Part shown: positions 4,625 through 63,621 of the stretch, one piece after another | How positions within the stretch are numbered: position 1 is the first letter of the stretch | How the letters are laid out: the number at the start of each line of letters is the position of its first letter | Sequence record: OZ035757.1 | Length of the DNA stretch: 64,000 bases | Strand: one strand, 5' to 3' | Source of the DNA: Felixounavirus LF82P9 | Notes under the pieces: model-generated | Database searches by the model: none | What the model was told of the DNA's origin: nothing | The model's input: only the letters and a program-made list of their open reading frames with translations | Made by a program: the position numbers and the translations under genes

Positions 4625-4740
4625 AATGACCTCAAAGTTATATTAAATTTTGTATTACATTGAGTATAAAAATAAGCTATAACACCTGACTTGTCAACAG
4701 ATTTTATAGCTTATTTGGCAGATTTTTTATAAGGCTACTG

Positions 4741-5100: not shown

Positions 5101-5133
5101 AAGACCTTTTAAAAAGGAGCCTCCGAAGAGGCT
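5101..5133 (-). terminator. rho-independent terminator (minus strand)
   Basis: On minus strand: stem agcctc/gaggct with 4-nt loop, then TTTTT; directly downstream of the gene ending at 5145. Confidence 0.55.
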
Positions 5134-5144
5134 ACCTAGTCAAC

Positions 5145-5587: not shown

Positions 5588-6193
<606 letters not shown>

Positions 6194-6249
6194 TTAGTTG
6201 ATTGTTAAGTTGTTTGTAAAGAACCCTCAACAGAAGACTCTTTAGAAAC

Positions 6250-6516
6250 TTGGTAGATTTTTAACGTGGATACTACCATCCACCCATACCGTGCCACACC
6301 ACACCGGACCGTACCATGCCCAACCCTACTACACCAGACCTTATTAAAAGACCCTCTCCAAAGACCTTTTAAAAAGGTAAGTCTCATTTTAATGTAGCTG
6401 AGACTAACTACCCATACATTACCGCACCATATTATACCCTACCCCACCATACTTCACTGCACCGAGCCACGCATTACATCACTTAAAAACCCTTTTCAAA
6501 GACTCTTAAGTGATGC
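6250..6516. repeat. composite intergenic element, copy B
   Basis: Same architecture as 4741-5100: C/A-skewed tracts, near-identical 72-nt core (6343-6416), cacttaaaaaccc...ctcttaagtgatg block. Confidence 0.6.
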
Positions 6517-6729
6517 TGGTGAGTACCCGTTGGTTTATGATGCTCAGTATACTCACCAAATTTCCTATGTCAACAACTTTTATAAAAAAGTTCTGATAGC
6601 TATATGCGTCACGAAACAAAAGATTGTAAACAAGACACCCATTGCAAAAGATGTGTCCAAAAGCTTACTTGCAACGTATGACAATACAAAGACAACCAGT
6701 ATAAATAGAATGACTGTACTGAACATAGT

Positions 6730-41383: not shown

Positions 41384-42169
41384 ATGGGTATTGTAAAAAT
41401 AATCAATGGTGATATCTTTGCCGCATTTGATAAAGGTAAGTTTGACATCATCGGTCACGGTTGCAACTGTATGAATTTAATGGGTGCAGGTATCGCTGAC
41501 AAGATTTCTAAACTTTACCCAAAAGCATATGAAACCGATACAGAAGTTTATCTATATGCAGGTGGTATAGGACACAAACCCTGTGAAAATTTACTGGGTA
41601 ATTTCTCTGTAGCGCGTTTAAAACAAGGTCGTATAGCTAACCTTTACACTCAGCTTAAGACTGGTAAAGATGCCCGATACAGTGCTTTAGAGTCATCTTT
41701 GAAACAGCTTAACAGATACTGTGAAGTCAATCAGTTGAAGAAAGTCGGGTTACCTATGATTGGTGCAGGTATCGGTGGGCTAGACCCTCAAGCCGTCACA
41801 GTTATCATTAATCAGGTGATGAAGAGTGTAGATGTTTATCTATATGTCTATGAAGGAGAGATGTACCACAAGTTACGCTCAGGTTGGAAGAACTACTGTG
41901 AACCAGAATACTTTGCAGGTGTAGTTGTGTTCACGGATAATGCAGTTACCCTCTTCAGACGAAGAAAAGGTAAGATACATCAAAGTAACCCTCCGGTTGA
42001 AAAGATGTCTCTAAGTAACGCTCTAGTTACCCACCTGTCGAAGAGCAATCACAGGATTGCAGTAACATTTGGCAGTGATGCAGATACTTACATCTATGCA
42101 AGAACTGATGAGGATATCGAGACAGTTTTCTCTTCGCCAGAAGTTACCTTCTTAGACGCAAAGAGCTAA
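41384..42169 (+). CDS. macro-domain-like protein (ADP-ribose binding/processing)
   Basis: N-terminal IVKIINGDIF...DIIGHGCNCMNLMGAGIA resembles macro-domain glycine-rich motif; C-terminal ~100 aa unassigned. Confidence 0.5.
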   Translation: MGIVKIINGDIFAAFDKGKFDIIGHGCNCMNLMGAGIADKISKLYPKAYETDTEVYLYAGGIGHKPCENLLGNFSVARLKQGRIANLYTQLKTGKDARYSALESSLKQLNRYCEVNQLKKVGLPMIGAGIGGLDPQAVTVIINQVMKSVDVYLYVYEGEMYHKLRSGWKNYCEPEYFAGVVVFTDNAVTLFRRRKGKIHQSNPPVEKMSLSNALVTHLSKSNHRIAVTFGSDADTYIYARTDEDIETVFSSPEVTFLDAKS

Positions 42170-42241
42170 GAAACTTCGTAGGGTATTCACAATAGACTAA
42201 GCCTTTCTTATCTGGTAAATTTTTCAGGTAAGGAGGGCTTT

Positions 42242-42421
42242 TTCATTTCAGAATTGTGCAGGTATATCTCTGTAGAGAAATCTGTAGAGAGAATTTTGAA
42301 CTCCAAAGAGAAAATTCATTTTCAAACTGTGCAGGTAATCTCCAAAGAGCTTTTTCATTTTCAAAACGTGCAGACCCCGCTCAGGTCGGGCAAGAAAAAT
42401 CATTTTAGAATTGTGCAGGTA
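42242..42421. repeat. four direct repeats of ttcatttTcaaaNtgtgcaggta plus tandem atctgtagaga
   Basis: Copies ending near 42265, 42337, 42373, 42421; two copies embedded in ~40-bp tandem unit ctccaaagag-N-ttcattttcaaa-N-gtgcag. Confidence 0.6.
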
Positions 42422-42440
42422 GGTTTTTATAGACAGCCAG

Positions 42441-42476
42441 CCCAACCCCTCTCCCCCTCTTACTCCCCCTCTCCCC
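42441..42476. repeat. C-tract array (G-quadruplex-prone on minus strand)
   Basis: CCC, CCCC, CCCCC, CCCCC, CCCC runs with 2-6 nt spacers in an AT-rich genome. Confidence 0.5.
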
Positions 42477-42597
42477 AAAAGTCAATAGAAAAATTTGTAG
42501 CGGATTGAAAAATAATTCTTGATTTGCGTTCTGTTTTGTGGTAGTCGTGCGCACCCGTTTCATTACAGTTTTGCCAAAAATATTTTTAAAATTTTTA

Positions 42598-42626
42598 TTG
42601 ACTCTTTGAACGTGGTTATCTAATAT
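42598..42626 (+). promoter_or_regulatory. sigma70-like promoter
   Basis: TTGACT, 17-nt spacer, TAATAT; heads the small-ORF array. Confidence 0.55.
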
Positions 42627-42636
42627 TTACATCAAC

Positions 42637-42657
42637 GGGGAGGGAATGACCTTCCCC
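42637..42657 (+). promoter_or_regulatory. conserved intercistronic hairpin, family A (copy 1)
   Basis: ggggagggAATGAccttcccc followed by actaaataaa and RBS context taaactggagattcaaaaATG; copies at 45252, 45849, 46179. Confidence 0.55.
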
Positions 42658-42689
42658 ACTAAATAAAATCCTAAACTGGAGATTCAAAA

Positions 42690-42878
42690 ATGGCATCAAG
42701 AAAAATTAAAGTTGGCGATGAGGTTAACATTAAGCACGAATACTCTTACAAAATGCTAACTATACGCTCTTATAAGGTTTATCAGGTGGAAGCTATCCAC
42801 AAAGATAATACTTTTTCCTTAAAAGGGTATAGCGAACGTTTCCCTGCTGAACTCTTTGAGAAATGGAGCGCGAAATAA
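42690..42878 (+). CDS. small hypothetical protein
   Basis: ORF track; own hairpin-RBS cassette. Confidence 0.45.
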   Translation: MASRKIKVGDEVNIKHEYSYKMLTIRSYKVYQVEAIHKDNTFSLKGYSERFPAELFEKWSAK

Positions 42879-43084
42879 TGCTTTACAGTCGTGAATTGAT
42901 GGTTACAACTAACGTTAACACAAAGGTAAAACGTTTTTACATGCAAATTTGTGGCGTATGGTCCAGAATATCAGAAGCCGACTATTGCAACTATGTAGAA
43001 ACGGCTATTAATTCTAATTGCTACCTTACAAGAAACACTAAGAAATTTACAAGGCAGACAGCGATTTACTACTACGACAAATAA
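42878..43084 (+). CDS. small hypothetical protein
   Basis: Start set at TAATG overlap with upstream stop. Confidence 0.4.
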   Translation: MLYSRELMVTTNVNTKVKRFYMQICGVWSRISEADYCNYVETAINSNCYLTRNTKKFTRQTAIYYYDK

Positions 43085-43096
43085 AGTACTTTACAG

Positions 43097-43125
43097 GGGG
43101 CTTAAAAGCTGATATCTTAAGCCCC
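43097..43125 (+). promoter_or_regulatory. conserved intercistronic hairpin, family B (copy 1)
   Basis: ggggcttaa/ttaagcccc stem then agataaagagctttac; copies at 43569, 43916, 44518 with compensatory changes. Confidence 0.55.
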
Positions 43126-43172
43126 AGATAAAGAGCTTTACTAAATTAACCCTTAAACTAGGAGATTCAAAA

Positions 43173-43556
43173 ATGGCTTATCGTGCACCGAAATTCATCA
43201 ACAAAGACAACTTCCGCAACGCACTGGAGAAGTCACTTGATGAAAAATTTAACGGCAAATTGATTGTTGTTCACGCATTCAATTTTAAGTATGATATTAA
43301 CGGGAATAAAATCAACCATTACACGGCAACCATGTTAGATGGTACACTATCAAGTGAAAAAGCTGTACTGAATGCACTTGCAGGACGTGGTAAAAACCTG
43401 ATAAGATGCGATAAGAGACGTTATCAGGGTGGCGCATATGGTTATGATGATGCTGTTTATCATCTTGAAAATATGGGCTATTCAGTGGAAAAAGCTGGAG
43501 TATCTCAAATAATCGGCAGCGATGGTTATGTAACTATCTTCAAAATTAACAAATAA
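43173..43556 (+). CDS. hypothetical protein
   Basis: ORF track; cassette gene. Confidence 0.5.
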   Translation: MAYRAPKFINKDNFRNALEKSLDEKFNGKLIVVHAFNFKYDINGNKINHYTATMLDGTLSSEKAVLNALAGRGKNLIRCDKRRYQGGAYGYDDAVYHLENMGYSVEKAGVSQIIGSDGYVTIFKINK

Positions 43557-43568
43557 AGTACTTTACAA

Positions 43569-43597
43569 GGGGCTTATAGTTCGATAAAGTAAGCCCC
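43569..43597 (+). promoter_or_regulatory. family B hairpin (copy 2)
   Basis: ggggctta/taagcccc then agataaagagctttac. Confidence 0.5.
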
Positions 43598-43642
43598 AGA
43601 TAAAGAGCTTTACCACTAAATCCTAAATTGGAGAACTTAAAA

Positions 43643-43900
43643 ATGGCTATTATCAAAAACGTTGTAATTACCGCAAAGACTCGTGATGACGCTCGTATCA
43701 TGGCTAAAAAGTTATGCGGGAAAGTGGTTGACAACGGGAAACAGTCTGCCGTAAGATGGGGCGTAAAGGCTGATAAACAGTTAAACCTAAAACGCAGTTC
43801 AAATAACCTTTTTAAAGGTGTAAAAACACTCGGTAAAGTGAATGTTTTCACTAAACAAGGTTACAAAATGCACTTATCATTAACTGGCAATTTAATCTGA
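43643..43900 (+). CDS. small hypothetical protein
   Basis: Start moved to MAIIKNV behind ggag RBS. Confidence 0.45.
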   Translation: MAIIKNVVITAKTRDDARIMAKKLCGKVVDNGKQSAVRWGVKADKQLNLKRSSNNLFKGVKTLGKVNVFTKQGYKMHLSLTGNLI

Positions 43901-43915
43901 TAAAGTACTTTACAA

Positions 43916-43944
43916 GGGGCTTAAAAGTTGATATCTTAAGCCCC
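43916..43944 (+). promoter_or_regulatory. family B hairpin (copy 3)
   Basis: ggggcttaa/ttaagcccc then agataaagagctttac. Confidence 0.5.
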
Positions 43945-43988
43945 AGATAAAGAGCTTTACTACTAAGTCCTAAACTGGAGATTCAAAA

Positions 43989-44501
43989 ATGAAAACTGTA
44001 GACGCTACCTTTGAAGTTGTAAAAGAAAAATTCACTATTATTTATGAAGCTGTCAATTGCTTTGAAGCAAGCCATAATCTTGATAATTGGGAGTTTACAG
44101 ACACCCATCAGGGCGGCGTGACTATTAAAAACCCCAACTGTCAGCGTAATGATTTTAAATATGCAATCCCTTTGCATTACAGCCTTAAACAGCTTTCAAG
44201 TGACTATGCAAAACAAGGCCGGGAAAATCCATCAAAAGAGGCTTACACAAGCTTACAGAAAGAATTAGAAAGAGATTTAGAGGCTTCAGAATACAACCTT
44301 GCCGCGAAAGTTGTCGATGCAAATGGTCAAACAATTTTAGACAGTTTTTATATTGGCTACGCTTTTGATTGGTGCTATAGTGACGGCGATGATTTAGAGG
44401 ATAGACTAAAAGAAGAGGTGAACAATTCAGACGCAGAATCTGAAGTATTAGAACGTTTGGAATCACTAAAAGATTCAGTGATGAATATCTTTAAGAACTA
44501 A
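43989..44501 (+). CDS. hypothetical protein
   Basis: ORF track; cassette gene. Confidence 0.5.
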   Translation: MKTVDATFEVVKEKFTIIYEAVNCFEASHNLDNWEFTDTHQGGVTIKNPNCQRNDFKYAIPLHYSLKQLSSDYAKQGRENPSKEAYTSLQKELERDLEASEYNLAAKVVDANGQTILDSFYIGYAFDWCYSDGDDLEDRLKEEVNNSDAESEVLERLESLKDSVMNIFKN

Positions 44502-44517
44502 ATAGATTTCTTTACAC

Positions 44518-44545
44518 GGGGTTATCAAGCTGGTAGGATAGCCCC
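44518..44545 (+). promoter_or_regulatory. family B hairpin (copy 4)
   Basis: ggggttatc/gatagcccc (compensatory variant) then agataaagag. Confidence 0.5.
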
Positions 44546-44593
44546 AGATAAAGAGATTTATCAAATAAAGCCCTTAAACTAGGAGATTCTAAA

Positions 44594-44890
44594 ATGAAAT
44601 TATCAAATCAAGTGCGTGAAAATCTAAGCAAATTACTCAACAAAATTGATTTCATTGAAACATCAAGGAATAATCATGATGTTATGGAATGGTTACACGG
44701 CAAAATAAAAGGCCGTCGTGTAGTGATTTGCTTATGGAACAGTTGCAGGGAGTATAAAAAACCTGTATTGCAAGTTAATATCTATGATGATACTTTTAAA
44801 AGTCCTGTAAAGTCTAAAAGCGATTTATTAGAATCCTATGAGATAACTGTAAATGGCAAAGTATCACGTAAAGAGGAAACACCATGTTAA
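44594..44890 (+). CDS. hypothetical protein
   Basis: ORF track; cassette gene. Confidence 0.45.
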   Translation: MKLSNQVRENLSKLLNKIDFIETSRNNHDVMEWLHGKIKGRRVVICLWNSCREYKKPVLQVNIYDDTFKSPVKSKSDLLESYEITVNGKVSRKEETPC

Positions 44891-45216
44891 TGACTGGTAT
44901 CACTGCAATCATTGCCATTTTCGCGCTATATAAGGCATATAAAGCCTATAATCTAGCAAATAAGGCAATCACACAGCAGGTTAGTAATAGCCTTGTAGAA
45001 AGCTTTCTAGGGCGCCTCAGTGATGAGCAAATAAAGCGGCTAGAGATGAGCTTCAGATATAAAGCGAAAACCTATCAGATAAGTGACATCTTCAAAGATA
45101 ATTTTCAGTTAGTTGATGATTATAATTCTCTGATAAATGCTTTAAATGTCAGTGACTTAAAAGACTACTACGCTGTAATTGTTCAAGAATTGAGCAAACG
45201 AAAACAAAACTGTTGA
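44884..45216 (+). CDS. hypothetical membrane protein
   Basis: N-terminal hydrophobic segment. Confidence 0.45.
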   Translation: MLMTGITAIIAIFALYKAYKAYNLANKAITQQVSNSLVESFLGRLSDEQIKRLEMSFRYKAKTYQISDIFKDNFQLVDDYNSLINALNVSDLKDYYAVIVQELSKRKQNC

Positions 45217-45251
45217 CACTGGTTTTTAGATAGATTAAATTACACATCAAC

Positions 45252-45272
45252 GGGGAGGGAATGACCTTCCCC
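45252..45272 (+). promoter_or_regulatory. family A hairpin (copy 2)
   Basis: Identical ggggagggaatgaccttcccc 53 nt upstream of ATG. Confidence 0.55.
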
Positions 45273-45304
45273 ACTAAATAAAGTCCTAAACTGGAGATTC
45301 TAAA

Positions 45305-45835
45305 ATGAACAAATTTCAAGCTATCAACTTCATTCGTTCAAATGCTGTAATGTCTAAGCCTGTAAAAGATACATATGAATTTCGTTGTAATGGGGTACAC
45401 TTTGCAACCATCACTAAGTCAGAAAACGGGGCTTATTATGTACATCGTCGTAATGTTGCAACCGTTGTAGTCTCTCACTTTATGCAAGCTGTAGCGGAAT
45501 TATTACCGTTATTCTTAGAGATTTACTTAGATGAGTGTAAAAACGTTCACAACCACGTTAAAAACCTTTTAAACGGTTATAAAATGGCTTATGAACGTTC
45601 TATCAAGTCACTAAACAAGTTTTACAATGCACCTGCAAATACTGTTTCAATGGCTTATGATGTAAACGGTGAGTTAGTTAGTCTCTTTAAAGTGGAAGAA
45701 ATTAAACTGTATAATCTACGTCCTAGTGGTTACTCTAAGACTCTTGGTGAAGGTTTAACGTTCAATATCAAGAACTTAGAAAAAACTTTAAAAGATATTG
45801 AAAAAGATATTGACGAGACAATAAAAAGTCTGTAA
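45305..45835 (+). CDS. hypothetical protein
   Basis: ORF track; cassette gene. Confidence 0.5.
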   Translation: MNKFQAINFIRSNAVMSKPVKDTYEFRCNGVHFATITKSENGAYYVHRRNVATVVVSHFMQAVAELLPLFLEIYLDECKNVHNHVKNLLNGYKMAYERSIKSLNKFYNAPANTVSMAYDVNGELVSLFKVEEIKLYNLRPSGYSKTLGEGLTFNIKNLEKTLKDIEKDIDETIKSL

Positions 45836-45848
45836 ATTGTCAATCAAC

Positions 45849-45869
45849 GGGGAGGGAATGACCTTCCCC
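45849..45869 (+). promoter_or_regulatory. family A hairpin (copy 3)
   Basis: Identical hairpin 53 nt upstream of ATG. Confidence 0.55.
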
Positions 45870-45901
45870 ACTAAATAAAGTCCTAAACTGGAGTTATCAA
45901 G

Positions 45902-46165
45902 ATGGAAAACGTAGAATTAACCACACTTTTACAAATTGCAACTGACAAAGAAGATGTAGCACTGTTTCACCGTATCGAAAGCGATTTATTCAATGGTGAA
46001 ATCATCAAAGAATCTTATGAAGTTGTCGGATTCAAAGATGGTAAAGCGTTTGGCTTTTTTGACCTCGACAAAGGCAACGCTGTCACAAAGTATGATGTCG
46101 TATCTTGTGAGATTCTTACAAAATACAACGAAAAAAGGCTTGCAACATACGCCAATATGCAGTAA
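45902..46165 (+). CDS. small hypothetical protein
   Basis: ORF track; cassette gene. Confidence 0.45.
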   Translation: MENVELTTLLQIATDKEDVALFHRIESDLFNGEIIKESYEVVGFKDGKAFGFFDLDKGNAVTKYDVVSCEILTKYNEKRLATYANMQ

Positions 46166-46178
46166 ATTACTAATCAAC

Positions 46179-46197
46179 GGGAGGCGATAACCTCCCC
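46179..46197 (+). promoter_or_regulatory. family A hairpin (variant copy 4)
   Basis: gggagg-cgataa-cctccc then actaaataaaa. Confidence 0.45.
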
Positions 46198-46231
46198 ACT
46201 AAATAAAACCCTTAAACTAGGAGATTCAAAA

Positions 46232-46480
46232 ATGGCAACTATCCGCGCTACTGTCAATGCCTATGGCTGTTATACTCTGGACGTTAAATTCGATATTGGT
46301 GGAACTGATGAGTGTTTTTCATTAGTGAAGACAGTTATCAAACAAGTTATTCCAGATTATAACCCTACTGATGACTTCTGGAAAGATGCTGTAAAAGAGG
46401 CATTAAACGACGAGCATCACTATCATTACTGGGGTGACTTGATTGTTTCCCTGTACTACAATAAACAAGGTTACAACTAA
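46232..46480 (+). CDS. small hypothetical protein
   Basis: ORF track; last gene of plus-strand block. Confidence 0.45.
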   Translation: MATIRATVNAYGCYTLDVKFDIGGTDECFSLVKTVIKQVIPDYNPTDDFWKDAVKEALNDEHHYHYWGDLIVSLYYNKQGYN

Positions 46481-46490
46481 TCGACGCAAC

Positions 46491-46543
46491 GGGGCTAAAT
46501 AGCCCCAGATACCTCAACAGCCCCTGTTTAAAGGGGCTTTTTT
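46491..46543 (+). terminator. tandem-hairpin rho-independent terminator
   Basis: ggggct-aaat-agcccc, then agcccct/aggggct followed by TTTTTT. Confidence 0.6.
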
Positions 46544-46545
46544 AC

Positions 46546-48162
46546 GTCTATTGAATCCTTATACAATCCCTTTCCAGAATCTTATCAGACCTTAAAAGCA
46601 ATAACTCTATAGTCTACTCTATAACCTCTTATCAAATCAACTTAAATAAAAGCCAATAACCCCCAGAAAGGGGATGGCCCATTTAAACGCTCTATAAAGC
46701 TCTATAACAGCCTTATCAACCTAACTTAAGGGATTGCATTAACCAACCTTAAAAAGCTCTTTACAGGGCTTTATAGAGACTTAAAAGAATCTTATAAGGG
46801 TGTAAGCTTTATTATCTCATTAGTATTCTTGTGAATATCTAAACAACCCCTTGATAGTCACTAAAAAGTATGTTATAGGGGCTTTAAAGTTACTTTGAAG
46901 TAGCTTAAAAGTTACGTAAAAGAGGCTATAAAGTTACGTAAATGCTAGCCCCCTTAACATTTTCTTAACAATTTCTTAACAAACCCTACATAGTTATGCT
47001 TTTAAGGCACTTGTTAGCAACTTGTTAGCCCCTTGTTAAATCTCTGTTACAACCATGTAAAAGCCTTGTAAGAACCTTTGACATAGCCTTAAAAGCTCCT
47101 GTAAAGCCCTATAAAGAGGTATCTGTACAGTTGGGGGATAGATACTAGGAAGAGGCTTAAAAGAGCTTATAAAGAGCTATAGAGAGCTTTTAAGAGGTAT
47201 GTTTAAGGAATCACTAAGAAAGCAAAGGGAACGATAAGAAAAGAGTAGTGACCATGTTAATAGCTTGTTAAAAAGATTAAACACTTGTTAGAAACTTATT
47301 AATTATCTTAACAAAATAACTCTTCAAAATTAACTTGTTAGCTCTTGTTAGTCATCTGTTAAGATTCTGTAAAGCCTATGTATCAACTGTTAAGAAACTG
47401 TTAAGCTCTTGTTAGTTCTGTTAAGAATCTGTTAAGACCTTTGAAGAGTTGTTAAGAAGATGTGAGAACTGTTAAGAGATTGTTAAGGATATTTTAAAAT
47501 TTTGCAAAGTACTTGTAAGGGAGCTGTTAAGGGCTACCAAGCAGATATACATCTTCTACAGATATTTTTCAGTTCCTTCAGAGACCCTAAAAAATAACTT
47601 GATAGTCCTATTTTATAAAAATTTTAAGATTCTGAATAATTACCTATACAGCCTTTTAAAAATACAGGTAATAACAGGCTTATAAGATACCTTGTTAGTA
47701 CCGTGTTAGACCTTGTGAGATAAGGTCTGTAAAGATATTCCTGTTAAGTTTGTTAAAACAGTCTATATAGAGGCTTAGTAATACCTAGTGAACACCTATA
47801 GAGAGTGTCATAGCTAACCTAGAGATTAAGAGGTGTATAGGAGCTTCTAAGAGGATGTAGAGAGATGGTTAAGGTGATTGTATAGGTTGTTAAGAGGGCT
47901 TGTTAGAAGAGTGTTTAGATGGCTATTTAGAAGGGCTATACAGAGGGCTATTAAGACCACTAGATAGTTACTAAGATACTATATAGTACTATATAACTAT
48001 ATAGAGAGTAAGATTAAGAAGGTTGTTAAGAAGGATAGATATTTTATTCACATATGATGGTGACCCAGAGGTTGGGACAACCGATAAAATTTTATAAAAA
48101 ATATAAATTTCGTAAATTTTACTCAATAAAAAGCCCCCAATTAAGGAGGCTCTTAAGATATT
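46546..48162. repeat. ORF-free repeat array (candidate protein-binding array, origin or packaging region)
   Basis: No ORF of 60 aa or more on either strand; many copies of (C)TGTTA(A)G in both orientations, phased at ~10-12 bp around 47385-47530; second family CTATAAAG. Confidence 0.6.
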
Positions 48163-58339: not shown

Positions 58340-58416
58340 CTCTGTTTAGCTCAGCTTGGTAGAGCGTTCCGTTTGGGGCGGTAAGGCCGGAGGTTCAAGT
58401 CCTCCAACAGAGACCA
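58340..58416 (+). tRNA. tRNA-Pro(TGG)
   Basis: Cloverleaf; acceptor ctctgtt/aacagag; anticodon loop ttTGGgg; T-loop TTCAAGT; CCA encoded. Confidence 0.75.
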
Positions 58417-58423
58417 AATTAAT

Positions 58424-58501
58424 GTTCCAGTAGACAAAATGGTAAAGTCACCACTCTTTCAAAGTGGATATCTGAGGGTTCAAATCCCTTCTGGAACGCC
58501 A
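58424..58501 (+). tRNA. tRNA-Glu(TTC)
   Basis: Acceptor gttccag/ctggaac; anticodon loop ctTTCaa; T-loop TTCAAAT; CCA encoded. Confidence 0.8.
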
Positions 58502-58508
58502 GTTTTGA

Positions 58509-58581
58509 CAGAAGACCAATTACAGCAAACTTAATCTTATTCATCTGAAGGTAAATCGGACAAAGAAGAGATTTGGTCTGG
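58509..58581 (+). other. box-bounded spacer element E1 (candidate small structured RNA)
   Basis: 5' box CAGAAGACCaaTTACAGCAAA, 3' box tGGTCTGGt; AGACC/GGTCT can pair; family recurs at 58676, 59133, 59220. Confidence 0.4.
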
Positions 58582-58592
58582 TCATTAAGAAT

Positions 58593-58669
58593 TGCGGGTA
58601 TAGAGAAAGGGCGTCTCACATGTCTCATTAGCATGGTATCGGCAGGTTCGACTCCTGCACCCGCCTCCA
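58593..58669 (+). tRNA. tRNA-Met-like(CAT), atypical
   Basis: Anticodon loop ctCATta; T-loop TTCGACT; CCA encoded; 1:72 mismatch (U-C) and extra nt before D-stem. Confidence 0.5.
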
Positions 58670-58675
58670 AATTTA

Positions 58676-58741
58676 CAGAAGACCGTTTACAGCAAAATTG
58701 AATGAAATTTTTAGCGGAAAAAATTGAAAGATACGGTCTGG
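58676..58741 (+). other. box-bounded spacer element E2
   Basis: 5' box CAGAAGACCgtTTACAGCAAA, 3' box cGGTCTGGt. Confidence 0.4.
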
Positions 58742-58754
58742 TAATACTAAACAT

Positions 58755-58831
58755 GGTTAGGAAGCACATAAGGTATGTGCGGTCGCCTGTTAAGCGAATG
58801 GCACAGGGTTCGAATCCCTGACTAACCGCCA
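58755..58831 (+). tRNA. tRNA-Asn(GTT)
   Basis: Anticodon loop ctGTTaa; T-loop TTCGAAT; CCA encoded. Confidence 0.8.
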
Positions 58832-58900
58832 AATTTAGGAGAGAAGCGATTGCTCACCGATTTGTAAGGTGCAAGTCCTTAGCCTGAATAGAAATTAAAT

Positions 58901-58988
58901 GTGTCGTTATCCCGTAGATGGTAGCGGTGGGGACTGTAAATCCCTTGTCATTGAGACTCGGTAGGTTCGACTCCTACACGGCACACCA
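58901..58988 (+). tRNA. tRNA-Tyr(GTA)
   Basis: Anticodon loop ctGTAaa; long variable arm; T-loop TTCGACT; CCA encoded. Confidence 0.8.
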
Positions 58989-58993
58989 ATAAA

Positions 58994-59071
58994 GGTTATG
59001 TAGTTTAATTTGGTTAAAATACTCCCCTGTCACGGGAGATGATGAGGGTTCAAATCCCTTCGTAACCGCCA
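58994..59071 (+). tRNA. tRNA-Asp(GTC)
   Basis: Anticodon loop ctGTCac; T-loop TTCAAAT; CCA encoded. Confidence 0.8.
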
Positions 59072-59132
59072 ATTTTGAGAGGGCTATTTAGCCCCTCCCT
59101 TAAAGGGTTCTTACGAGTATCCTTTAAAGGAG

Positions 59133-59206
59133 CAGAAGACCAAATACAGCAAGAACGTATGAAATTTCAAGCCAATTTAATTTTGAAAATTTAAAACTTG
59201 GTCTGG
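59133..59206 (+). other. box-bounded spacer element E3
   Basis: 5' box CAGAAGACCaaaTACAGCAAg, 3' box tGGTCTGGc. Confidence 0.4.
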
Positions 59207-59219
59207 CTCAACAAATTTA

Positions 59220-59351
59220 CAGAAGACCGTTTACAGCAAAACTTAAACAATCTATTTCTCCGGTAAAGAAAAGGCGAAGGTTCGATTCCTTCACTCGGCA
59301 GAGGTCGAGTTGGTGTAATGGTAGCACTTAAGATGATAAACAACGGTCTGG
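59220..59351 (+). other. box-bounded spacer element E4 (contains tRNA-fragment-like segments)
   Basis: 5' box CAGAAGACCgtTTACAGCAAA, 3' box cGGTCTGGt; interior holds T-arm plus 3'-acceptor-like segment without a matching 5' acceptor. Confidence 0.4.
59276..59300 (+). pseudogene. tRNA 3'-half-like remnant (T-arm only)
   Basis: gaagg-TTCGATT-ccttc followed by actcggc; no complementary 5' acceptor strand found within 200 nt upstream. Confidence 0.35.
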
Positions 59352-59500
59352 TAATTATCTTTGTAGATAAGTTATTAAGCTTACCTGTGAGTATGCGACC
59401 ACAAAGGGTGAAAGGGTAAATTCTAGATTTAAACCCAAAAAGGCACATCGCTACAGACCTTAAGCAAGTCTGGGTAGCTTATCTACAAAGATAATTTAAT

Positions 59501-59576
59501 GGAAGTGTAGCAGAATGGTGATGCGGCAGACTTTTAATCTGACAGGCGATGGGTTCGAATCCCTCCACTTCTACCA
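59501..59576 (+). tRNA. tRNA-Lys(TTT)
   Basis: Anticodon loop ctTTTaa; T-loop TTCGAAT; CCA encoded. Confidence 0.8.
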
Positions 59577-59581
59577 AAAAT

Positions 59582-59658
59582 GGTTCAGTCGCAGATAAGG
59601 TAATGCAAGGGTTTCATAAGCCCTATGAATGTGGGTTCGATTCCCACCTGAACCTCCA
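59582..59658 (+). tRNA. tRNA-Met(CAT) (or Ile-lysidine type)
   Basis: Anticodon loop ttCATaa; T-loop TTCGATT; CCA encoded. Confidence 0.75.
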
Positions 59659-59659
59659 A

Positions 59660-59735
59660 GCTGGTATAGTTAAGAAGGTTATAACACTCCCCTGATAAGG
59701 GAACATCGGTGGTTCGATTCCACCTACCAGTACCA
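59660..59735 (+). tRNA. tRNA-Ile(GAT)
   Basis: Anticodon loop ctGATaa; T-loop TTCGATT; CCA encoded. Confidence 0.8.
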
Positions 59736-59750
59736 ATTTCAATAAAGTTG

Positions 59751-59779
59751 TTGACATTGAGATGTGACTACTTTATAGT
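59751..59779 (+). promoter_or_regulatory. sigma70-like promoter inside tRNA array
   Basis: TTGACA, 17-nt spacer, TATAGT. Confidence 0.55.
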
Positions 59780-60010
59780 AACCTTAGTTTTCGTTGCGTA
59801 GCGTCTATTTTGCAAATTTAAAATAAATGCAAACGACAATGTTTTTCTGGCAGTAGCTTGATAGGCTAAACACCAGTGAGGTCTTCCAATCCCTCATCAA
59901 AGAATTTGGCGTACTAGCCCACGGTATGATTAATAAGGTGGGCAACATTCTAAAGGGTATCCCTTATGGGGCTTGGCTTAAATGCAATAAGTACCCTTTA
60001 AAATGTTAAT

Positions 60011-60087
60011 GCACCCTTAGTTCAATTGGATAGAGCAACGGTCTTCTAAATCGTTAGTTACAGGTTCGAATCCTGTAGGGTGTACCA
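60011..60087 (+). tRNA. tRNA-Arg(TCT)
   Basis: Anticodon loop ctTCTaa; T-loop TTCGAAT; CCA encoded. Confidence 0.8.
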
Positions 60088-60229
60088 AATAGTTAGCAGA
60101 TTGCTTAGACGACCTTATCGGGTCTCCGTGTAAGGAGGTGGTCTGTATCTCATGTTTTCCAGAACATGTAAATAATCTGAGAAGGGGCTTGACAGTGTTG
60201 AGATAATACGGTAAGCTTCGAATTGTAGT

Positions 60230-60312
60230 GTGGGACGATGTTAAGACTCTAAGGCATGAGCAACGGCCTCCAAAACCGTTTCAAAGGGGTTCAACTCCTC
60301 CGTCCCATGCCA
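60230..60312 (+). tRNA. tRNA-Trp-like(CCA), atypical
   Basis: Acceptor gtgggac/gtcccat and T-loop TTCAACT clear; anticodon loop ctCCAaa; ~8 extra nt between acceptor and D-stem. Confidence 0.4.
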
Positions 60313-60325
60313 AAGTCTTATTAGG

Positions 60326-60413
60326 GGTAGGTAGCGGCTAATGGCAGCCAAACAGTCTTGAAAACTGTTGCCACTGTAGAGATACGGTGAGGGTTCGACT
60401 CCTTTACTTACCG
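60326..60413 (+). tRNA. tRNA-Ser(TGA)
   Basis: Anticodon loop ctTGAaa; long variable arm; T-loop TTCGACT; CCA not encoded. Confidence 0.8.
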
Positions 60414-60671
60414 CCTAATAAGATTTTACACCGTCCATGCTTGCTCGCATTTTCGGTTTATCCCTCGTGTATTGTCGTACACACTGATAAAGCACCTAGT
60501 AGGTGTCACGGAGAAGAGATAATATCAAGCTCTCCAAAGGTTCTAGTCACCGGATTAAACAAGACTATGCAAAGACCTTTTTAGGTCTTTTTAGAGGGCT
60601 TCTAAGGTTATTACAGCTTGTTGTGGAACCTTGTTGCTTAGGTTCTTAGAAGTTCTCTAAAAAGATTTAAT

Positions 60672-60749
60672 GGGAGATTGACGGTAATTGGTAAACCTAC
60701 CATCCTTAGAAGTTGGTGTTTGAGGGTTCGAATCCCTTGTCTCCTACCA
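60672..60749 (+). tRNA. tRNA with anticodon TAG (Leu by anticodon), short variable arm
   Basis: Acceptor gggagat/gtctcct; anticodon loop ctTAGaa; T-loop TTCGAAT; CCA encoded; A73; anticodon stem has one mismatch. Confidence 0.5.
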
Positions 60750-60756
60750 AATTAAT

Positions 60757-60832
60757 GCAGGTGTAGCAAAATGGTTATGCGGCTGACTCTTAATCAGTAA
60801 GACGATGGGTTCAATTCCCTCCACCTGTACCA
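60757..60832 (+). tRNA. tRNA-Lys(CTT)
   Basis: Anticodon loop ctCTTaa; near-paralogue of tRNA-Lys(TTT); CCA encoded. Confidence 0.75.
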
Positions 60833-60838
60833 AAAAAT

Positions 60839-60914
60839 GGGGTCATAGTTTATATGGTTAAAATTCGAGTTTTGCAAACTTGGGAACTGAGTTCAATTCT
60901 CAGTGACTCCACCA
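60839..60914 (+). tRNA. tRNA-Ala(TGC)
   Basis: Anticodon loop ttTGCaa; G3-U70 wobble pair in acceptor stem; CCA encoded. Confidence 0.8.
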
Positions 60915-60920
60915 ATTAGT

Positions 60921-60995
60921 GCATCCATAGTTTAAACGGGAAAATTACAGTCTTCCAAACTGAGGTTGAGGGTTCGATTCCCTCTGGATGCTCCA
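60921..60995 (+). tRNA. tRNA-Gly(TCC)
   Basis: Anticodon loop ctTCCaa; T-loop TTCGATT; CCA encoded. Confidence 0.8.
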
Positions 60996-61002
60996 AATTA
61001 AT

Positions 61003-61078
61003 GCTCCTATCGTATAATTGGCTATTACGGTTGCCTTGTAAGCAACTTATCAGGGTTCGAATCCTTGTGGGAGCACCA
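61003..61078 (+). tRNA. tRNA-Thr(TGT)
   Basis: Anticodon loop ctTGTaa; perfect anticodon stem; CCA encoded. Confidence 0.8.
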
Positions 61079-61174
61079 ATTCAGAGGTCAAGTGAAAGAC
61101 CGCTTTGAGTCAACTGAAGACCGTAACAAATTCCACGGAGTTGAGTTAGCGGCACAACTTCAGACCTCTTTCAC

Positions 61175-61249
61175 ACTCGCTTAGTTTATATGGTAAAACA
61201 CCACCCTTACAAGATGAAGAAAAAGGTTCAAGTCCTTTAGTGAGTACCA
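61175..61249 (+). tRNA. tRNA-Val-like(TAC)
   Basis: Acceptor, D and T arms good; anticodon loop ctTACaa but anticodon stem only 3 of 5 pairs. Confidence 0.5.
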
Positions 61250-61250
61250 T

Positions 61251-61328
61251 GTTCCAGTATCCCAATTGGCAGAGGATGCAAGCTCAAACCTTGTATTAGT
61301 GACGGTTCGAATCCGTCTTGGAACACCA
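61251..61328 (+). tRNA. tRNA with anticodon CAA (Leu by anticodon), short variable arm
   Basis: Anticodon loop ctCAAac; 3-bp D-stem with long D-loop; 6-nt variable region; A73; CCA encoded. Confidence 0.55.
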
Positions 61329-61333
61329 ATTTT

Positions 61334-61409
61334 GCAGGATTAGTTCAAATGGATAGAGCAACAGTCTACGAAGCTGTTAATAGGGGTTCGAACCCCTTAT
61401 CCTGCACCA
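61334..61409 (+). tRNA. tRNA-Arg(ACG)
   Basis: Anticodon loop ctACGaa; T-loop TTCGAAC; CCA encoded. Confidence 0.8.
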
Positions 61410-61427
61410 GATAAGCAAGAGGAATTT

Positions 61428-61670
61428 ATGCAAACATTAATCGTCGTTGAACATGAAAATTCCAATAGTATTGAGTTTGTAAGGGTTCCCACTATAGATA
61501 CCCACATTTTCTTAAAAGTCGGATGGGAATGCGACCCAATAAAAGTAGAAAGATTTATTGGTCATTGCTTTGGTGGAAGACAACTTAAAAGTGTCAATTT
61601 TGAGACAATGTTACCAGAAAGCTCAGAAACAAGTAATAATGCTTACCTCCTTACGAGGGTTAGACAATGA
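61428..61670 (+). CDS. hypothetical protein inside tRNA array
   Basis: ORF track; starts 18 nt after tRNA-Arg. Confidence 0.4.
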   Translation: MQTLIVVEHENSNSIEFVRVPTIDTHIFLKVGWECDPIKVERFIGHCFGGRQLKSVNFETMLPESSETSNNAYLLTRVRQ

Positions 61671-62224
61671 GATACTTAAAATATGCTTCATGGATTTTCT
61701 TAGCTTTGCTAGAACCACTTGCAGCAATACTAGCAGTTATCTTAGCACCTTTTGTAGTTCCATTCTACAGTGAGAAGAAAGGACACTTACCTTTCGGGTT
61801 CAGATGGATGGAGACATATGACAACCCAATTGATGGTGATGAAGGTCACGTTAAAAGATGGGCTAATATCAGATGGATTGGTAAACTAGGTGTCTACATG
61901 CAAAGAGTCGGATGGCTCTGGAGAAACAAAGCTTATAACTTCTCTTACCATGTATTAGGAAGAGATGTAAAAGATGTTACTAAGTGGAAAGGTAATATCA
62001 ACGTAAGTTCTGACCCTGAAGATAATCAGACAGGTTATCTCCTAATGTGGAACAGTAATGCTTGGGGATTATTCGCTTTTATCCCATCAATTAAAATCTT
62101 TGGTAAACAATTTTACTGGAGAATTTATATTGGATGGAAACTAAAAAGTGTTGTCCCAGAAGAAAGAGCATTCTCAAGGGAAAGAGTTATGTTGGCATTC
62201 TTTATTCATCCACTGAGAAAGTAA
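61667..62224 (+). CDS. Trp-rich membrane protein inside tRNA array
   Basis: N-terminal TM (WIFLALLEPLAAILAVILAPFVV); ATGA overlap with upstream ORF. Confidence 0.45.
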   Translation: MRYLKYASWIFLALLEPLAAILAVILAPFVVPFYSEKKGHLPFGFRWMETYDNPIDGDEGHVKRWANIRWIGKLGVYMQRVGWLWRNKAYNFSYHVLGRDVKDVTKWKGNINVSSDPEDNQTGYLLMWNSNAWGLFAFIPSIKIFGKQFYWRIYIGWKLKSVVPEERAFSRERVMLAFFIHPLRK

Positions 62225-62232
62225 AGATTTAA

Positions 62233-62308
62233 AGGGGATTAGTTTACAAGGTTAAAACCTCGGTCTTTGAAATCGAAGAAGTTGGTTCAATTCCAACATC
62301 CCCCGCCA
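62233..62308 (+). tRNA. tRNA-Gln(TTG)
   Basis: Anticodon loop ctTTGaa; T-loop TTCAATT; A1-C72 mismatch; CCA encoded. Confidence 0.75.
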
Positions 62309-62310
62309 AT

Positions 62311-62389
62311 GCTCCATTACTCCAATTGGCAGAGAGGCCAGACTTAAAATCTGTGTTATGTATCGGTTCGAATCCGATATGGAGTACCA
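62311..62389 (+). tRNA. tRNA with anticodon TAA (Leu by anticodon), short variable arm
   Basis: Anticodon loop ctTAAaa; D-arm paralogous to the CAA tRNA; A73; CCA encoded. Confidence 0.55.
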
Positions 62390-62394
62390 AATTT

Positions 62395-62470
62395 AGCGGC
62401 ATAGCATAACTGGCAATGCAGCAGTCTCTGAAGCTGTCTTATTAAGGTTCAAATCCTTATGCCGCTGCCA
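62395..62470 (+). tRNA. tRNA-Gln(CTG)
   Basis: Anticodon loop ctCTGaa; T-loop TTCAAAT; CCA encoded. Confidence 0.8.
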
Positions 62471-62501
62471 CTTCTAAGGATTCTTACGAGAGTCCTTAAA
62501 T

Positions 62502-62577
62502 GTGGCCTTATCATAAATGGTAATGACCCATGCTGTGAACATGGTCTATACGGGTTCAAATCCCGTAGGTCACCCCA
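62502..62577 (+). tRNA. tRNA-His(GTG)
   Basis: Anticodon loop ctGTGaa; perfect anticodon stem; C73; CCA encoded. Confidence 0.8.
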
Positions 62578-62582
62578 ATTTA

Positions 62583-62659
62583 TAGTCCAAGTAGCTTATA
62601 TGGTTAAAGCGCGTGTCTGAAAAACATGAGAAGAGGGTTCAAATCCCACTGGACTACCA
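62583..62659 (+). tRNA. tRNA-Phe(GAA)
   Basis: Anticodon loop ctGAAaa; D-arm ta-gctt...aagc; acceptor register ambiguous by 2 nt. Confidence 0.65.
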
Positions 62660-62675
62660 ATTTCAAAGGTGCTTA

Positions 62676-63410
62676 ATGAAAGAGATGACAGAACAAGGTA
62701 AGGAGATTTTCAATCTCTTAAAAACCGGTAAAGGGTTTTCTAACCCCCTTATTACTGGTGCAGCAGTTCTCGGTGGAACCGTAGCTGCCTCTACATCACT
62801 TGTAAGCTCTATTAGCTCTGTATCAGACCCTGCAGTAAAGGATAAGCTTGTTGCTGCTGGACTTACAACAGTTCTGCTTAACAGCTTTACCACGAGTCTG
62901 ACAAGCACTACATCAACTACCAAAACACTAACAGATTACGGTCAAAAGTCCATTGATGAGTTTTCATCACGTATGCAGGTAGCAAAAGGTTACTCTAATG
63001 TTATGGGTGCAGCAGGTGAACAAGTTGGCTGTACACCATTTAGTGGTATTATGGGTGTTGCTACAGAGTATGGTCAAAAAGCTATTGATACGATTAACAG
63101 TGCACTAGATAGTGTTAATGGTGTGTTAAGTGACTTACAAGATGCTATTGACAAAGGTCTTGATACTATTTCTGATTTAGCTGAGCAAGCTGTTAGTAAG
63201 ATTAATGAAGGTATTTCAAAAATTACAGCTTATGCAGATGAAGTTGTGCAGATGATTGAAGAAGAAGCTGCTCTTATTGCAGAGTACCTTAAAACGAATA
63301 TCAATGGGTTCTTAGCAGGTATCTTACCAGACTGGTTTGATGATGCTTGTAAAACTGGTGTAATTGACACTATTGCAACACCAGAAATGAAGAACGCATT
63401 ACAGAAATAA
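62676..63410 (+). CDS. Ser/Thr-rich membrane protein inside tRNA array
   Basis: ORF 62613-63410 trimmed to Met after tRNA-Phe; hydrophobic segment then S/T-rich tract; stop 2 nt before tRNA-Ser. Confidence 0.45.
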   Translation: MKEMTEQGKEIFNLLKTGKGFSNPLITGAAVLGGTVAASTSLVSSISSVSDPAVKDKLVAAGLTTVLLNSFTTSLTSTTSTTKTLTDYGQKSIDEFSSRMQVAKGYSNVMGAAGEQVGCTPFSGIMGVATEYGQKAIDTINSALDSVNGVLSDLQDAIDKGLDTISDLAEQAVSKINEGISKITAYADEVVQMIEEEAALIAEYLKTNINGFLAGILPDWFDDACKTGVIDTIATPEMKNALQK

Positions 63411-63412
63411 AT

Positions 63413-63505
63413 GGAAGATTAACCCTAAAAGGTAAGGGAGCAGTTTGCTAAACTGCCAGTAGCTGAGAAATCGGTGTACCAGTTCAAGTCTGGTATCTTC
63501 CTCCA
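63413..63505 (+). tRNA. tRNA-Ser(GCT)
   Basis: Anticodon loop ttGCTaa; long variable arm; perfect acceptor ggaagat/atcttcc; CCA encoded. Confidence 0.85.
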
Positions 63506-63509
63506 ATTT

Positions 63510-63585
63510 GAATCCGTGACAGAAATGGCTATGTGCCTGTCTGCAAAACAGGTTTATAAGGGTTCGAGTCCCTTCGGATTCTCCA
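63510..63585 (+). tRNA. tRNA-Cys(GCA)
   Basis: Anticodon loop ctGCAaa; perfect anticodon stem; CCA encoded. Confidence 0.85.
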
Positions 63586-63621
63586 ATTTATTTTACTCTC
63601 TCTCAATTAAAATAATAATAA

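Follow-up and report, generated by a model that had tools for sequence, protein, structure and literature searches.

The stretch from position 42598 to 46543 of a 64-kb window of Felixounavirus LF82P9 (OZ035757.1; all coordinates refer to this whole window) carries an array of ten small open reading frames (ORFs) interspersed with two families of hairpin-bearing repeats, here called Family A and Family B. We consider it probable that this array is a highly variable (hyperplastic) early region of a Felix O1-like myovirus, built of self-contained expression cassettes of the promoter-early stem-loop (PeSL) type. In such a cassette, a unit of about 90 nt, consisting of a host sigma70 promoter, a G/C-rich stem-loop, an A/U-rich leader, a strong ribosome-binding site (GGAG) and the ATG, would precede one or two small accessory ORFs. 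The evidence consists of the repeats themselves, the conserved geometry of their promoter-like sites, the covariation in the hairpins, the restriction of both families to one region and one strand, and the breakpoints located at the elements.

An initial annotation had described the array as ten hairpin-delimited cassettes behind a single promoter. Its observation, largely correct and far beyond chance, was confirmed in part. The interpretation was likewise partly supported, being right on modularity, recombination and selection for structure and wrong on the single promoter.

Cassette layout, predicted promoters and stem-loops

The region matched 258 phage records, all of them from Felix O1-like myoviruses (Felixounavirus and relatives). 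Phage XTG1 was the best match with 97% identity, and no single record covered at least 80% of the query in one place. Since the flanking terminators carry the t13 and t23 sequences, the stretch is the counterpart of Felix O1 genes 14–23, enclosed by two intrinsic terminators.

All ten ORFs lie on the plus strand between 42690 and 46480 and encode 62, 68, 127, 85, 170, 98, 110, 176, 87 and 82 aa. As stated before, they are devoid of recognisable motifs: none of the ten gave a Pfam match above the cut-off, only sub-threshold noise, and all of them fall in PHROGs families of unknown function. Sequence searches of the PDB with the 176-, 170-, 127- and 110-aa ORFs returned nothing meaningful. The AlphaFold model of the 170-aa ORF (pLDDT 86) had no convincing fold match; a single-sequence model of the same ORF, with a pLDDT of 47, was unusable. 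For the candidate roles in host takeover or anti-defence suggested at first, the searches thus yielded neither a sequence match nor a fold match.

The ORFs do not each occupy a cassette of their own, as had been proposed. Instead, eight cassettes hold the ten ORFs; the two that start at 42878 and 44884 each overlap their predecessor and lack an element. The intergenic gaps of 66–92 nt are wholly occupied by the repeat unit, in which the upstream stop codon is followed by an A/T-rich tract, a promoter-like site, the stem-loop, a Shine-Dalgarno sequence and the ATG. The ribosome-binding context previously noted as common to the cassettes precedes 8/10 ORFs.

Family A comprises three identical 35-nt copies at 42633, 45248 and 45845 and a variant at 46179, where the chance expectation is zero. 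The spacing reported for this family proved accurate, as the hairpin begins exactly 53 nt before the ATG in all four copies. Each copy contains a promoter-like site, with TTGACT, TTGACA, TTGACG or TTGCAA separated by 17 nt from TAATAT or TAAATT, and the hairpin begins 10 nt past the -10 hexamer. The stem has 8 bp (6 bp in the variant), and the predicted energies of the 60-nt leaders range from -13.6 to -19.7 kcal/mol. Among 107 distinct Family A contexts, the -35 hexamer is TTGCAA, TTGACA, TTGACG, TTGACT, TTGATT or TAGACA and the -10 hexamer TAAATT, TAAAGT, TAGTAT or TAATAT. TTG at -35 and TA...T at -10 are thus kept, the 17-nt spacer is low in information, and upstream there is an A/T-rich tract. 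A working sigma70 promoter would be expected to show conservation of this kind. In addition, two Family A copies coincide with annotated promoters in the GenBank entry for phage AYO145A.

A G-led hairpin stands 10 nt past the -10 in 148 of the 149 sites bearing an A-type promoter. At least eight different stem sequences occur, including GGGGAGGG/CCUUCCCC, GGGAGG/CCUCCC, GGGC/GCCC, GGGA/UCCC, GGGGC/GCCCC, GGGAGGU/ACCUCCC and GGGAGGC/GCCUCCC. Directly 3' of the stem lies ACUAAAUAAA, which is not a U run.

Two observations concern the Family A loop. In the Felix O1 locus (L002, 3984–4301), the 3' arm of the hairpin is one C short, so that ORF19 as annotated appears to start at an ATG within the loop (GGGAATGACC); the true start is probably the ATG following the shared ribosome-binding site. 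A mini-ORF in the loop (ATG ACC TTC CCC ACT AAA TAA) was considered and dropped, as it is missing from variant copies.

The four Family B hairpins described at 43097, 43569, 43916 and 44518 were all recovered, again with a chance expectation of zero. The inner 9-bp stem was described correctly, but the element extends further than had been recognised: an outer helix, AAGU.CUUUA paired with UAAAG.AGCUU, encloses this stem and is separated from it by a 3x3 internal loop. The whole structure has 9–10 plus 9 bp, or about 19 pairs, and a predicted energy of -21 to -24 kcal/mol. The conserved tail agataaagagctttac is the 3' strand of the outer helix, which explains its conservation. In the fourth copy, compensatory changes are found in the outer as well as the inner helix. 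Directly 3' of the Family B stem lies AGAUAAAG, again without a U run.

A promoter-like site is embedded in this fold, with the -35 hexamer within the outer 5' strand and the -10 hexamer in the loop and the inner 3' strand. TTTACA is present in 111/111 distinct Family B copies, and exactly 17 nt past it stands TATCTT, TAAAGT, TAAGAT, TAGTAT, TATGAT or TAGGAT. An extended -10 TG accompanies it in about half of the copies. T-12, A-11 and T-7 do not vary among 40 diverse copies, four of which come from an Erwinia phage. All three positions are in the loop of the hairpin, so that pairing gives no reason for them to be conserved.

In a sequence scan, all eight elements score as sigma70-like sites. 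The array had been read as a single transcript running from one sigma70-like promoter at its start to the terminal terminator. This does not hold, as every Family A and Family B copy has its own conserved promoter-like site of sigma70 type. Eight promoters are predicted rather than one, with a sigma70-type promoter for each cassette. Indirect support for host-type promoters comes from published work on Felix O1, which encodes no RNA polymerase of its own (Whichard 2010, PMC3185647). Furthermore, transcripts of ORFs 16, 20, 21 and 22 of the region are maximal 5 min after infection by RT-PCR, and an E. coli cell-free transcription-translation (TXTL) system yields the phage when supplied with the purified genome. 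The organisation of Felix O1 transcription, and its passage through terminators, was stated to be unknown (Whichard 2010, PMC3185647).

The eight elements have predicted fold energies of -13.6 to -23.9 kcal/mol with z-scores of -2.5 to -3.5. The initial annotation had noted that variant Family B stems keep their pairing, and an alignment of 91 distinct copies bears this out. Over 19 pairs, 98.5% of the cells are paired, with compensatory double changes at six of these pairs. This degree of pairing was not attained in any of 500 shuffles and was 32–59% in shifted registers. MAFFT had gapped the 3' arm of one Family B stem type, and three apical pairs were counted on an arm-anchored alignment. 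When counting was done on the 16 unambiguous pairs, 98.0% were paired and the covariation score was 0.111, compared with 0.062 after shuffling (reached by 0/500). In the Erwinia phage copies, GGUG/CACC takes the place of the GGGG/CCCC seen in all others.

G.U pairs are frequent in Family B and occur in 42/91 copies at inner pair 5 and in 82/91 at one outer pair. Their frequency makes the structure specific to the sense strand and favours RNA over a cruciform in DNA or a symmetric site for a protein. Selection on the stem-loops as sense-strand structures is supported by these sequence patterns. The covariance models of Rfam 15 gave no match up to E=1 on either strand of 42100–47900.

Distribution and exchange of cassettes

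Within the 64-kb window, both families are confined to a 4-kb stretch and to the plus strand alone. For comparison, XTG1 (L001), Felix O1 (L002), locus L011 and 29 IMG/VR loci were used, and gene clusters and element types were mapped in 27 loci and the window. In the 27 related loci, 90 Family A and 119 Family B cores (209) lie downstream of the macro-domain 'phosphatase' gene, which in the window occupies 41384–42169 and precedes the array. The 247 kb upstream contained one spurious Family A-like match, and the minus strand none. A blastn search of 50,697 phage records found Family A in 250 and Family B in 288, and 29 of the Family B records are from Erwinia phages. Almost all of the matching records are Felix O1-like phages of Escherichia, Salmonella, Shigella, Citrobacter and Erwinia; single records are labelled Staphylococcus and Campylobacter.

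The array had been proposed to be modular and prone to recombination, and the gene-content comparison agrees with this. Twenty complete regions between common flanks contain 9–20 genes drawn from 28 clusters, of which three are universal; both gene clusters of cassette 5 and the last gene of the array, in cassette 8, are present in 20/20. The cassette map shows presence/absence differences as well as replacements among relatives. Hairpin variants shift between genes, and members of clusters 6, 18, 19, 20 and 23 follow Family A in one phage and Family B in another. The order can also be swapped, as XTG1 has A-18, B-20 and locus L012 has A-20, B-18. In genomes without cluster 11, cluster 12 is preceded by the hairpin type that usually stands before cluster 11, and in L031 a cluster-11-type hairpin is fused to the usual cluster-12 tail, yielding a chimeric Family B element.

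The window is the sole one of the 20 complete regions without clusters 15, 16 and 23, and a block of 6–7 genes is missing. The element at 45213–45304 marks the junction: its left part is identical to the XTG1 element before cluster 15, its right part is identical to the L015 element before cluster 27, and homology to XTG1 stops at window position 45307. The deletion appears to have arisen by a crossover inside the Family A element, within about 55 nt of hairpin and leader.

Overall, 110 of the 132 internal BLAST end points against relatives (83%) fall in elements, which cover 20% of the region; counted as unique positions, 35/49 do so. Since nearly every gene boundary has an element, these end points show that the cassette is the unit of exchange and that the junctions lie in the repeats, and they prove no special mechanism. 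Integron-like attC sites or mobile elements were considered and rejected: the records of relatives annotate neither an integrase nor a transposase in the vicinity, the crossovers are scattered, and the repeats are promoter-bearing sequences located 5' of the ORFs.

Two further junction types were seen in relatives. In L038 (4150–4310), a 90-bp tandem duplication of a Family A element creates an 'empty cassette', its ATG leading straight into the spacer of the next promoter. Either unequal recombination between elements left this footprint, or the duplication is an artefact of assembly. In relatives such as XTG1 and L015, cluster 22 is preceded by a T-run terminator, GCCCCT...AGGGGCTTTT, followed by AGGAGG and the ATG with no promoter, which indicates that the array also contains classical attenuator junctions. 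The window lacks the cluster 22 gene block.

A PhageMaP study of phage Bas63 reported a non-essential segment at ~46–66 kb. This segment touches only the start of the Bas63 array, at ~64.4 kb, and gives weak support for the dispensability of the array.

Proposed roles of the elements, alternative explanations and known systems

Promoter activity, transcript ends and the roles of hairpins and ORFs are what we infer from these patterns. Each cassette would have a host-type promoter to drive its expression. With the start predicted at the CA of ATCAAC, the Family A hairpin would lie 2–4 nt from the 5' end of the cassette mRNA. Stem-loops so close to the 5' end of a transcript hinder attack by RNase E, and the position is thus that of an mRNA stabiliser. 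The Family A hairpin may accordingly shield its own mRNA from 5'-end-dependent decay, and it would also be carried by any read-through RNA arriving from upstream. In Family B, the predicted start lies past the inner 3' arm, so the cassette's own transcript would be without the hairpin, which would form solely in RNA arriving from the upstream cassette. There it may attenuate, end or 3'-protect the upstream message and thereby insulate neighbouring cassettes. The units, 60–100 nt long, near-identical and in one orientation, could in turn serve as homology patches for the phage recombination machinery. Recombination between them would delete, insert, replace or reorder cassettes and leave the expression signals intact.

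Several points weigh against this picture. Many of the hairpin copies are orthologues or gene-conversion products. Few independent changes therefore underlie the covariation, and its significance is overstated by the shuffle tests. Under any mechanism, a breakpoint at a gene boundary would fall on an element, and the deletion junction in the window, where clusters 14 and 27 meet, might in principle reflect misassembly across the repeat. Several -10 hexamers match TATAAT at just 4/6 positions. The missing U run after both hairpins makes classical intrinsic termination unlikely. RT-PCR, a crude measure of timing, puts Felix O1 ORFs 14, 17, 19 and 23 of this region at 25 min. A literature search found no RNA-seq or start-site mapping for Felix O1-like phages, and the papers on VpaE1, UAB_Phi87 and Gifsy defence contain nothing on these elements.

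The main competitor is a single promoter at 42598 with one long early transcript, in which the hairpins act as processing or stability signals and the hexamers are by-products. The model for this is the T7 early region, in which cleavage by RNase III between genes leaves 3' hairpins that protect the RNA. We hold this to be unlikely, even though several features speak for processing. Family B, with ~18–19 bp and a 3x3 internal loop, resembles the T7 RNase III sites and is near the minimal substrate length, and its helix is backed by covariation. A/U-rich single-stranded tails follow both hairpins, and the array lies between two terminators with no canonical one inside. However, pairing explains neither the three invariant loop positions of Family B nor the invariant unpaired CA of TTTACA. 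In Family A, TTG at -35 and TAnnnT at -10 are kept across a variable 17-nt spacer, and the stem of 6–8 bp is too short for RNase III. Processing and separate promoters are compatible, and only the 'single promoter' part is contradicted. Family B may even be dual-purpose, with a promoter placed inside an RNA processing or termination hairpin. The conserved stems may further be recognised by a dedicated phage factor driving integron-like cassette exchange. These readings have, in our view, a small probability. Under the first, primary and processed messages would share a near-identical 5' end (near the A of CCCCAGAUAAAG) and leader, and each gene would be expressed at a fixed level regardless of the upstream content.

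Inverted repeats may also act on DNA, either as operators through which a phage regulator shuts down the early promoters, or by being recognised by a structure-specific recombinase or nuclease that moves cassettes. In favour, the repeats overlap the promoters at the very place expected for repressor binding, their outer parts GGGG/CCCC and CTTTA/TAAAG are near-invariant, and breakpoints are concentrated at the elements; a DNA-binding-protein target was also the speculation of Arbiol 2010 (PMC2839356) for the GGGG...CCCC of PeSLs. A protein site should, however, keep its sequence, whereas the inner pairs change and remain complementary. Each G.U pair becomes an A.C mismatch on the other strand, so that the symmetry of a cruciform or dimer site is lost. 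The crossovers are spread over hairpin, tail and ribosome-binding part, which fits ordinary homologous recombination, and no recombinase gene is annotated beside the array in relatives. Altogether, a DNA-level function appears quite improbable. The least credible proposal, to which we give very little weight, is that the hairpins are ordinary terminators and the array a row of monocistronic units parted by full stops. The XTG1 record does list minus-strand Rho-independent terminators at the Family A hairpins, and PeSL stem-loops cut downstream lacZ expression as strongly as rrnB T1 (Arbiol 2010, PMC2839356). Nevertheless, no U run follows the hairpins on either strand, and the terminator scan finds t13 and t23 alone. 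Minus-strand genes are absent here, leaving nothing to terminate. Moreover, the Family A hairpin lies downstream of its own promoter, where an efficient terminator would block its own gene, and the true T-run terminator before cluster 22 in relatives indicates that the phage uses the canonical form when needed.

The cassette reading finds its closest known counterpart in the PeSLs of the T4-like phages RB49/phi1, T4/PST and KVP40/nt-1 (Arbiol 2010, PMC2839356; Comeau 2014, PMC4122927). In both systems, a repeated intergenic unit of ~70–100 nt runs from the stop codon of the upstream gene through an A/T-rich tract, a sigma70-like promoter and a GGGG...CCCC stem-loop to a Shine-Dalgarno sequence and the ATG. 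The units cluster among small ORFs without known relatives, and close relatives differ by indels and replacements at the units. PeSL stem-loops lie between -35 and -10, overlap the -10 or stand just past it. Family B, located between -35 and -10 and overlapping the -10, and Family A, 10 nt past the -10, both fall within this range. The Family B promoter, TTTACA-17 nt-TAnnnT, is also close to the T4/PST PeSL consensus TTTACW-17 nt-TAYWAT. In contrast to the PeSLs, the present elements belong to the Ounavirinae lineage, consist of just two tightly conserved families and form one array beside the genome end. No sequence similarity is detectable, the architecture alone being alike. In addition, the outer helix of Family B encloses the whole promoter, and covariation is documented here. 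For PeSLs, promoter and terminator/attenuator activities were demonstrated by reporter assays, and excised mini-circles were shown (Arbiol 2010, PMC2839356). All defining PeSL features that can be assessed from sequence were found in the Felix O1-like elements, which would place the elements in this class, taken as an operational class and not as a homology family. A literature search found no paper linking PeSLs to Felix O1-like phages.

The repeats had been seen before in Felix O1. Whichard 2010 (PMC3185647) printed a 57-bp repeat, equal to the Family B element, and a 39-bp repeat, equal to the Family A promoter, between genes 15/16, 19/20, 18/19 and 20/21, but neither assigned them a function nor included them in its promoter list.

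Other comparisons are more partial. Like the early RNase III sites of T7 (R0.3 to R1.3), Family B hairpins lie between early genes and have an upper and a lower stem with an internal loop, and cleavage would be predicted to leave a 3' hairpin on the upstream message. The T7 sites are, however, promoterless and follow three clustered promoters at the operon start, whereas a conserved promoter accompanies each site here. The Family B helix is at the lower length limit of this class (~20 bp or more), and Family A is too short. RNase III processing of Family B is thus possible. The Family A hairpin resembles that of the ompA 5' UTR, as it would begin 2–4 nt from a transcript start predicted from the -10 hexamer. 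As autonomous accessory genes with a predicted promoter of their own, the cassettes are also reminiscent of phage morons. In contrast to the present array with its common junction repeats, a moron is a lone insertion with a promoter and a true terminator on its flanks.

In T4 middle promoters, a MotA box, TGCTTtA, is centred near -30, about 12–13 bp from the -10, and acts with the phage activators MotA and AsiA. A T(A/G)CTTTA is present in our elements but ends 19 nt from the -10, and Felix O1 was found to have no proteins that modify the polymerase (Whichard 2010, PMC3185647). A MotA-dependent middle promoter (the 'PmSL' variant of Comeau 2014, PMC4122927) was accordingly rejected.

Felix O1 and related phages find wide use in Salmonella typing, biocontrol and phage engineering. 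For these phages, the cassette reading predicts eight early promoters in LF82P9 and up to ~15 in relatives, would explain why near-identical isolates differ in gene content at this genome end, and marks natural, expression-ready insertion sites for engineering. It further suggests that the PeSL design is not peculiar to T4-like phages and has arisen or been kept, with unrelated sequence, in a second myovirus subfamily. This is consistent with regulatory repeats being a general vehicle for shuffling accessory genes, and the covariation adds sequence-based evidence that their stem-loops are selected as sense-strand structures.

Features and surroundings of the array

The coordinates of elements, cassettes and flanking terminators are collected in Table 1. 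On the plus strand, the terminator scan reported t13 and t23 alone, and no canonical terminator lies within the array. t13 closes the upstream transcription unit and forms the left edge of the variable region. On the right, the array ends at tandem hairpins, just as first described: a short hairpin, which is a remnant flanked by Family A-like and Family B-like sequence, and then a canonical terminator.

Table 1. Elements, cassettes and flanking terminators of the LF82P9 array.
Feature	Coordinates	Strand	Details
Intrinsic terminator, Felix O1 t13	42199–42250	+	17-pair stem, then T run; sequence equals t13 in Table 2 of Whichard 2010 (PMC3185647)
Family A element 1	42598–42689	+	-35 TTGACT 42598–42603; -10 TAATAT 42621–42626; hairpin 42637–42657, 8-bp stem; GGAG; ATG 42690; -17.9 kcal/mol, z -3.4
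Cassette 1	42690–43084	+	ORFs 62 aa (42690–42878) and 68 aa (42878–43084), overlap at TAATG; PHROGs 15633 and 5293
Family B element 1	43084–43172	+	two-part hairpin 43084–43138; inner stem 43097–43125; -35 TTTACA 43090–43095; -10 TATCTT 43113–43118; then ribosome-binding site; -21.6 kcal/mol
Cassette 2	43173–43556	+	ORF 127 aa; PHROG 4495; no PDB relative
Family B element 2	43556–43642	+	two-part hairpin 43556–43610; inner stem 43569–43597; -35 TTTACA 43562–43567; -10 TAAAGT 43585–43590
Cassette 3	43643–43900	+	ORF 85 aa, basic, pI 10.6
Family B element 3	43903–43988	+	two-part hairpin 43903–43957; inner stem 43916–43944; -35 TTTACA 43909–43914; -10 TATCTT 43932–43937
Cassette 4	43989–44501	+	ORF 170 aa, acidic, pI 4.5
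Family B element 4, variant stem	44505–44593	+	stem GGGGTTATC/GATAGCCCC; two-part hairpin 44505–44558; -35 TTTACA 44511–44516; -10 TAGGAT 44534–44539; -23.9 kcal/mol
Cassette 5	44594–45216	+	ORFs 98 aa (44594–44890) and 110 aa (44884–45216, hydrophobic N-terminus), 7-nt overlap
Family A element 2	45213–45304	+	-35 TTGACA 45213–45218; -10 TAAATT 45236–45241; hairpin 45252–45272; also recombination junction
Cassette 6	45305–45835	+	ORF 176 aa
Family A element 3	45810–45901	+	-35 TTGACG 45810–45815 (within upstream ORF end); -10 TAAATT 45833–45838; hairpin 45849–45869
Cassette 7	45902–46165	+	ORF 87 aa, acidic
Family A element 4, variant	46140–46231	+	-35 TTGCAA 46140–46145; -10 TAAATT 46163–46168 (overlaps stop codon); hairpin GGGAGG/CCTCCC 46179–46196; -13.6 kcal/mol, z -3.5
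Cassette 8	46232–46480	+	ORF 82 aa, last array gene
Right edge	46488–46544	+	promoterless hairpin remnant CAACGGGGCTAAATAGCCCCAGATA 46491–46506; intrinsic terminator t23 46519–46544; -28.2 kcal/mol, z -4.6

Several observations were made around the array. The direct terminal repeat annotated in Salmonella phage UAB_69 begins with a sequence that matches the window exactly from position 46946 (46946–46970), which leaves ~400 nt between the end of the array and the physical terminus of the linear genome. The repeat-rich non-coding DNA following the array (46560–47900) is probably the terminal repeat. On the other side, a 350-nt non-coding stretch runs from t13 to the first cassette promoter and holds, at 42243–42433, four copies of a ~26-nt motif, TCATTTynrAAnnGTGCAGGTA. 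This motif is also seen in L009 (3599–3743); it occurs four times at the equivalent place in an Erwinia phage and in Mooglevirus loci, pointing to subfamily-wide conservation. The same non-coding leader contains an unusual C-rich tract, CCCAACCCCTCTCCCCCTCTTACTCCCCCTCTCCCC, at 42440–42478, in a genome of 39% G+C.

Elsewhere in the window, repeated GGTTCGAATCC-type segments at 58400–63600 appear to mark a large tRNA gene cluster. At 4625–5144 and 6191–6729, the gaps between minus-strand genes are filled by tracts with a 5-nt period (CCnnA, ~8x), and three copies of a 125-nt repeat are found within these two stretches.

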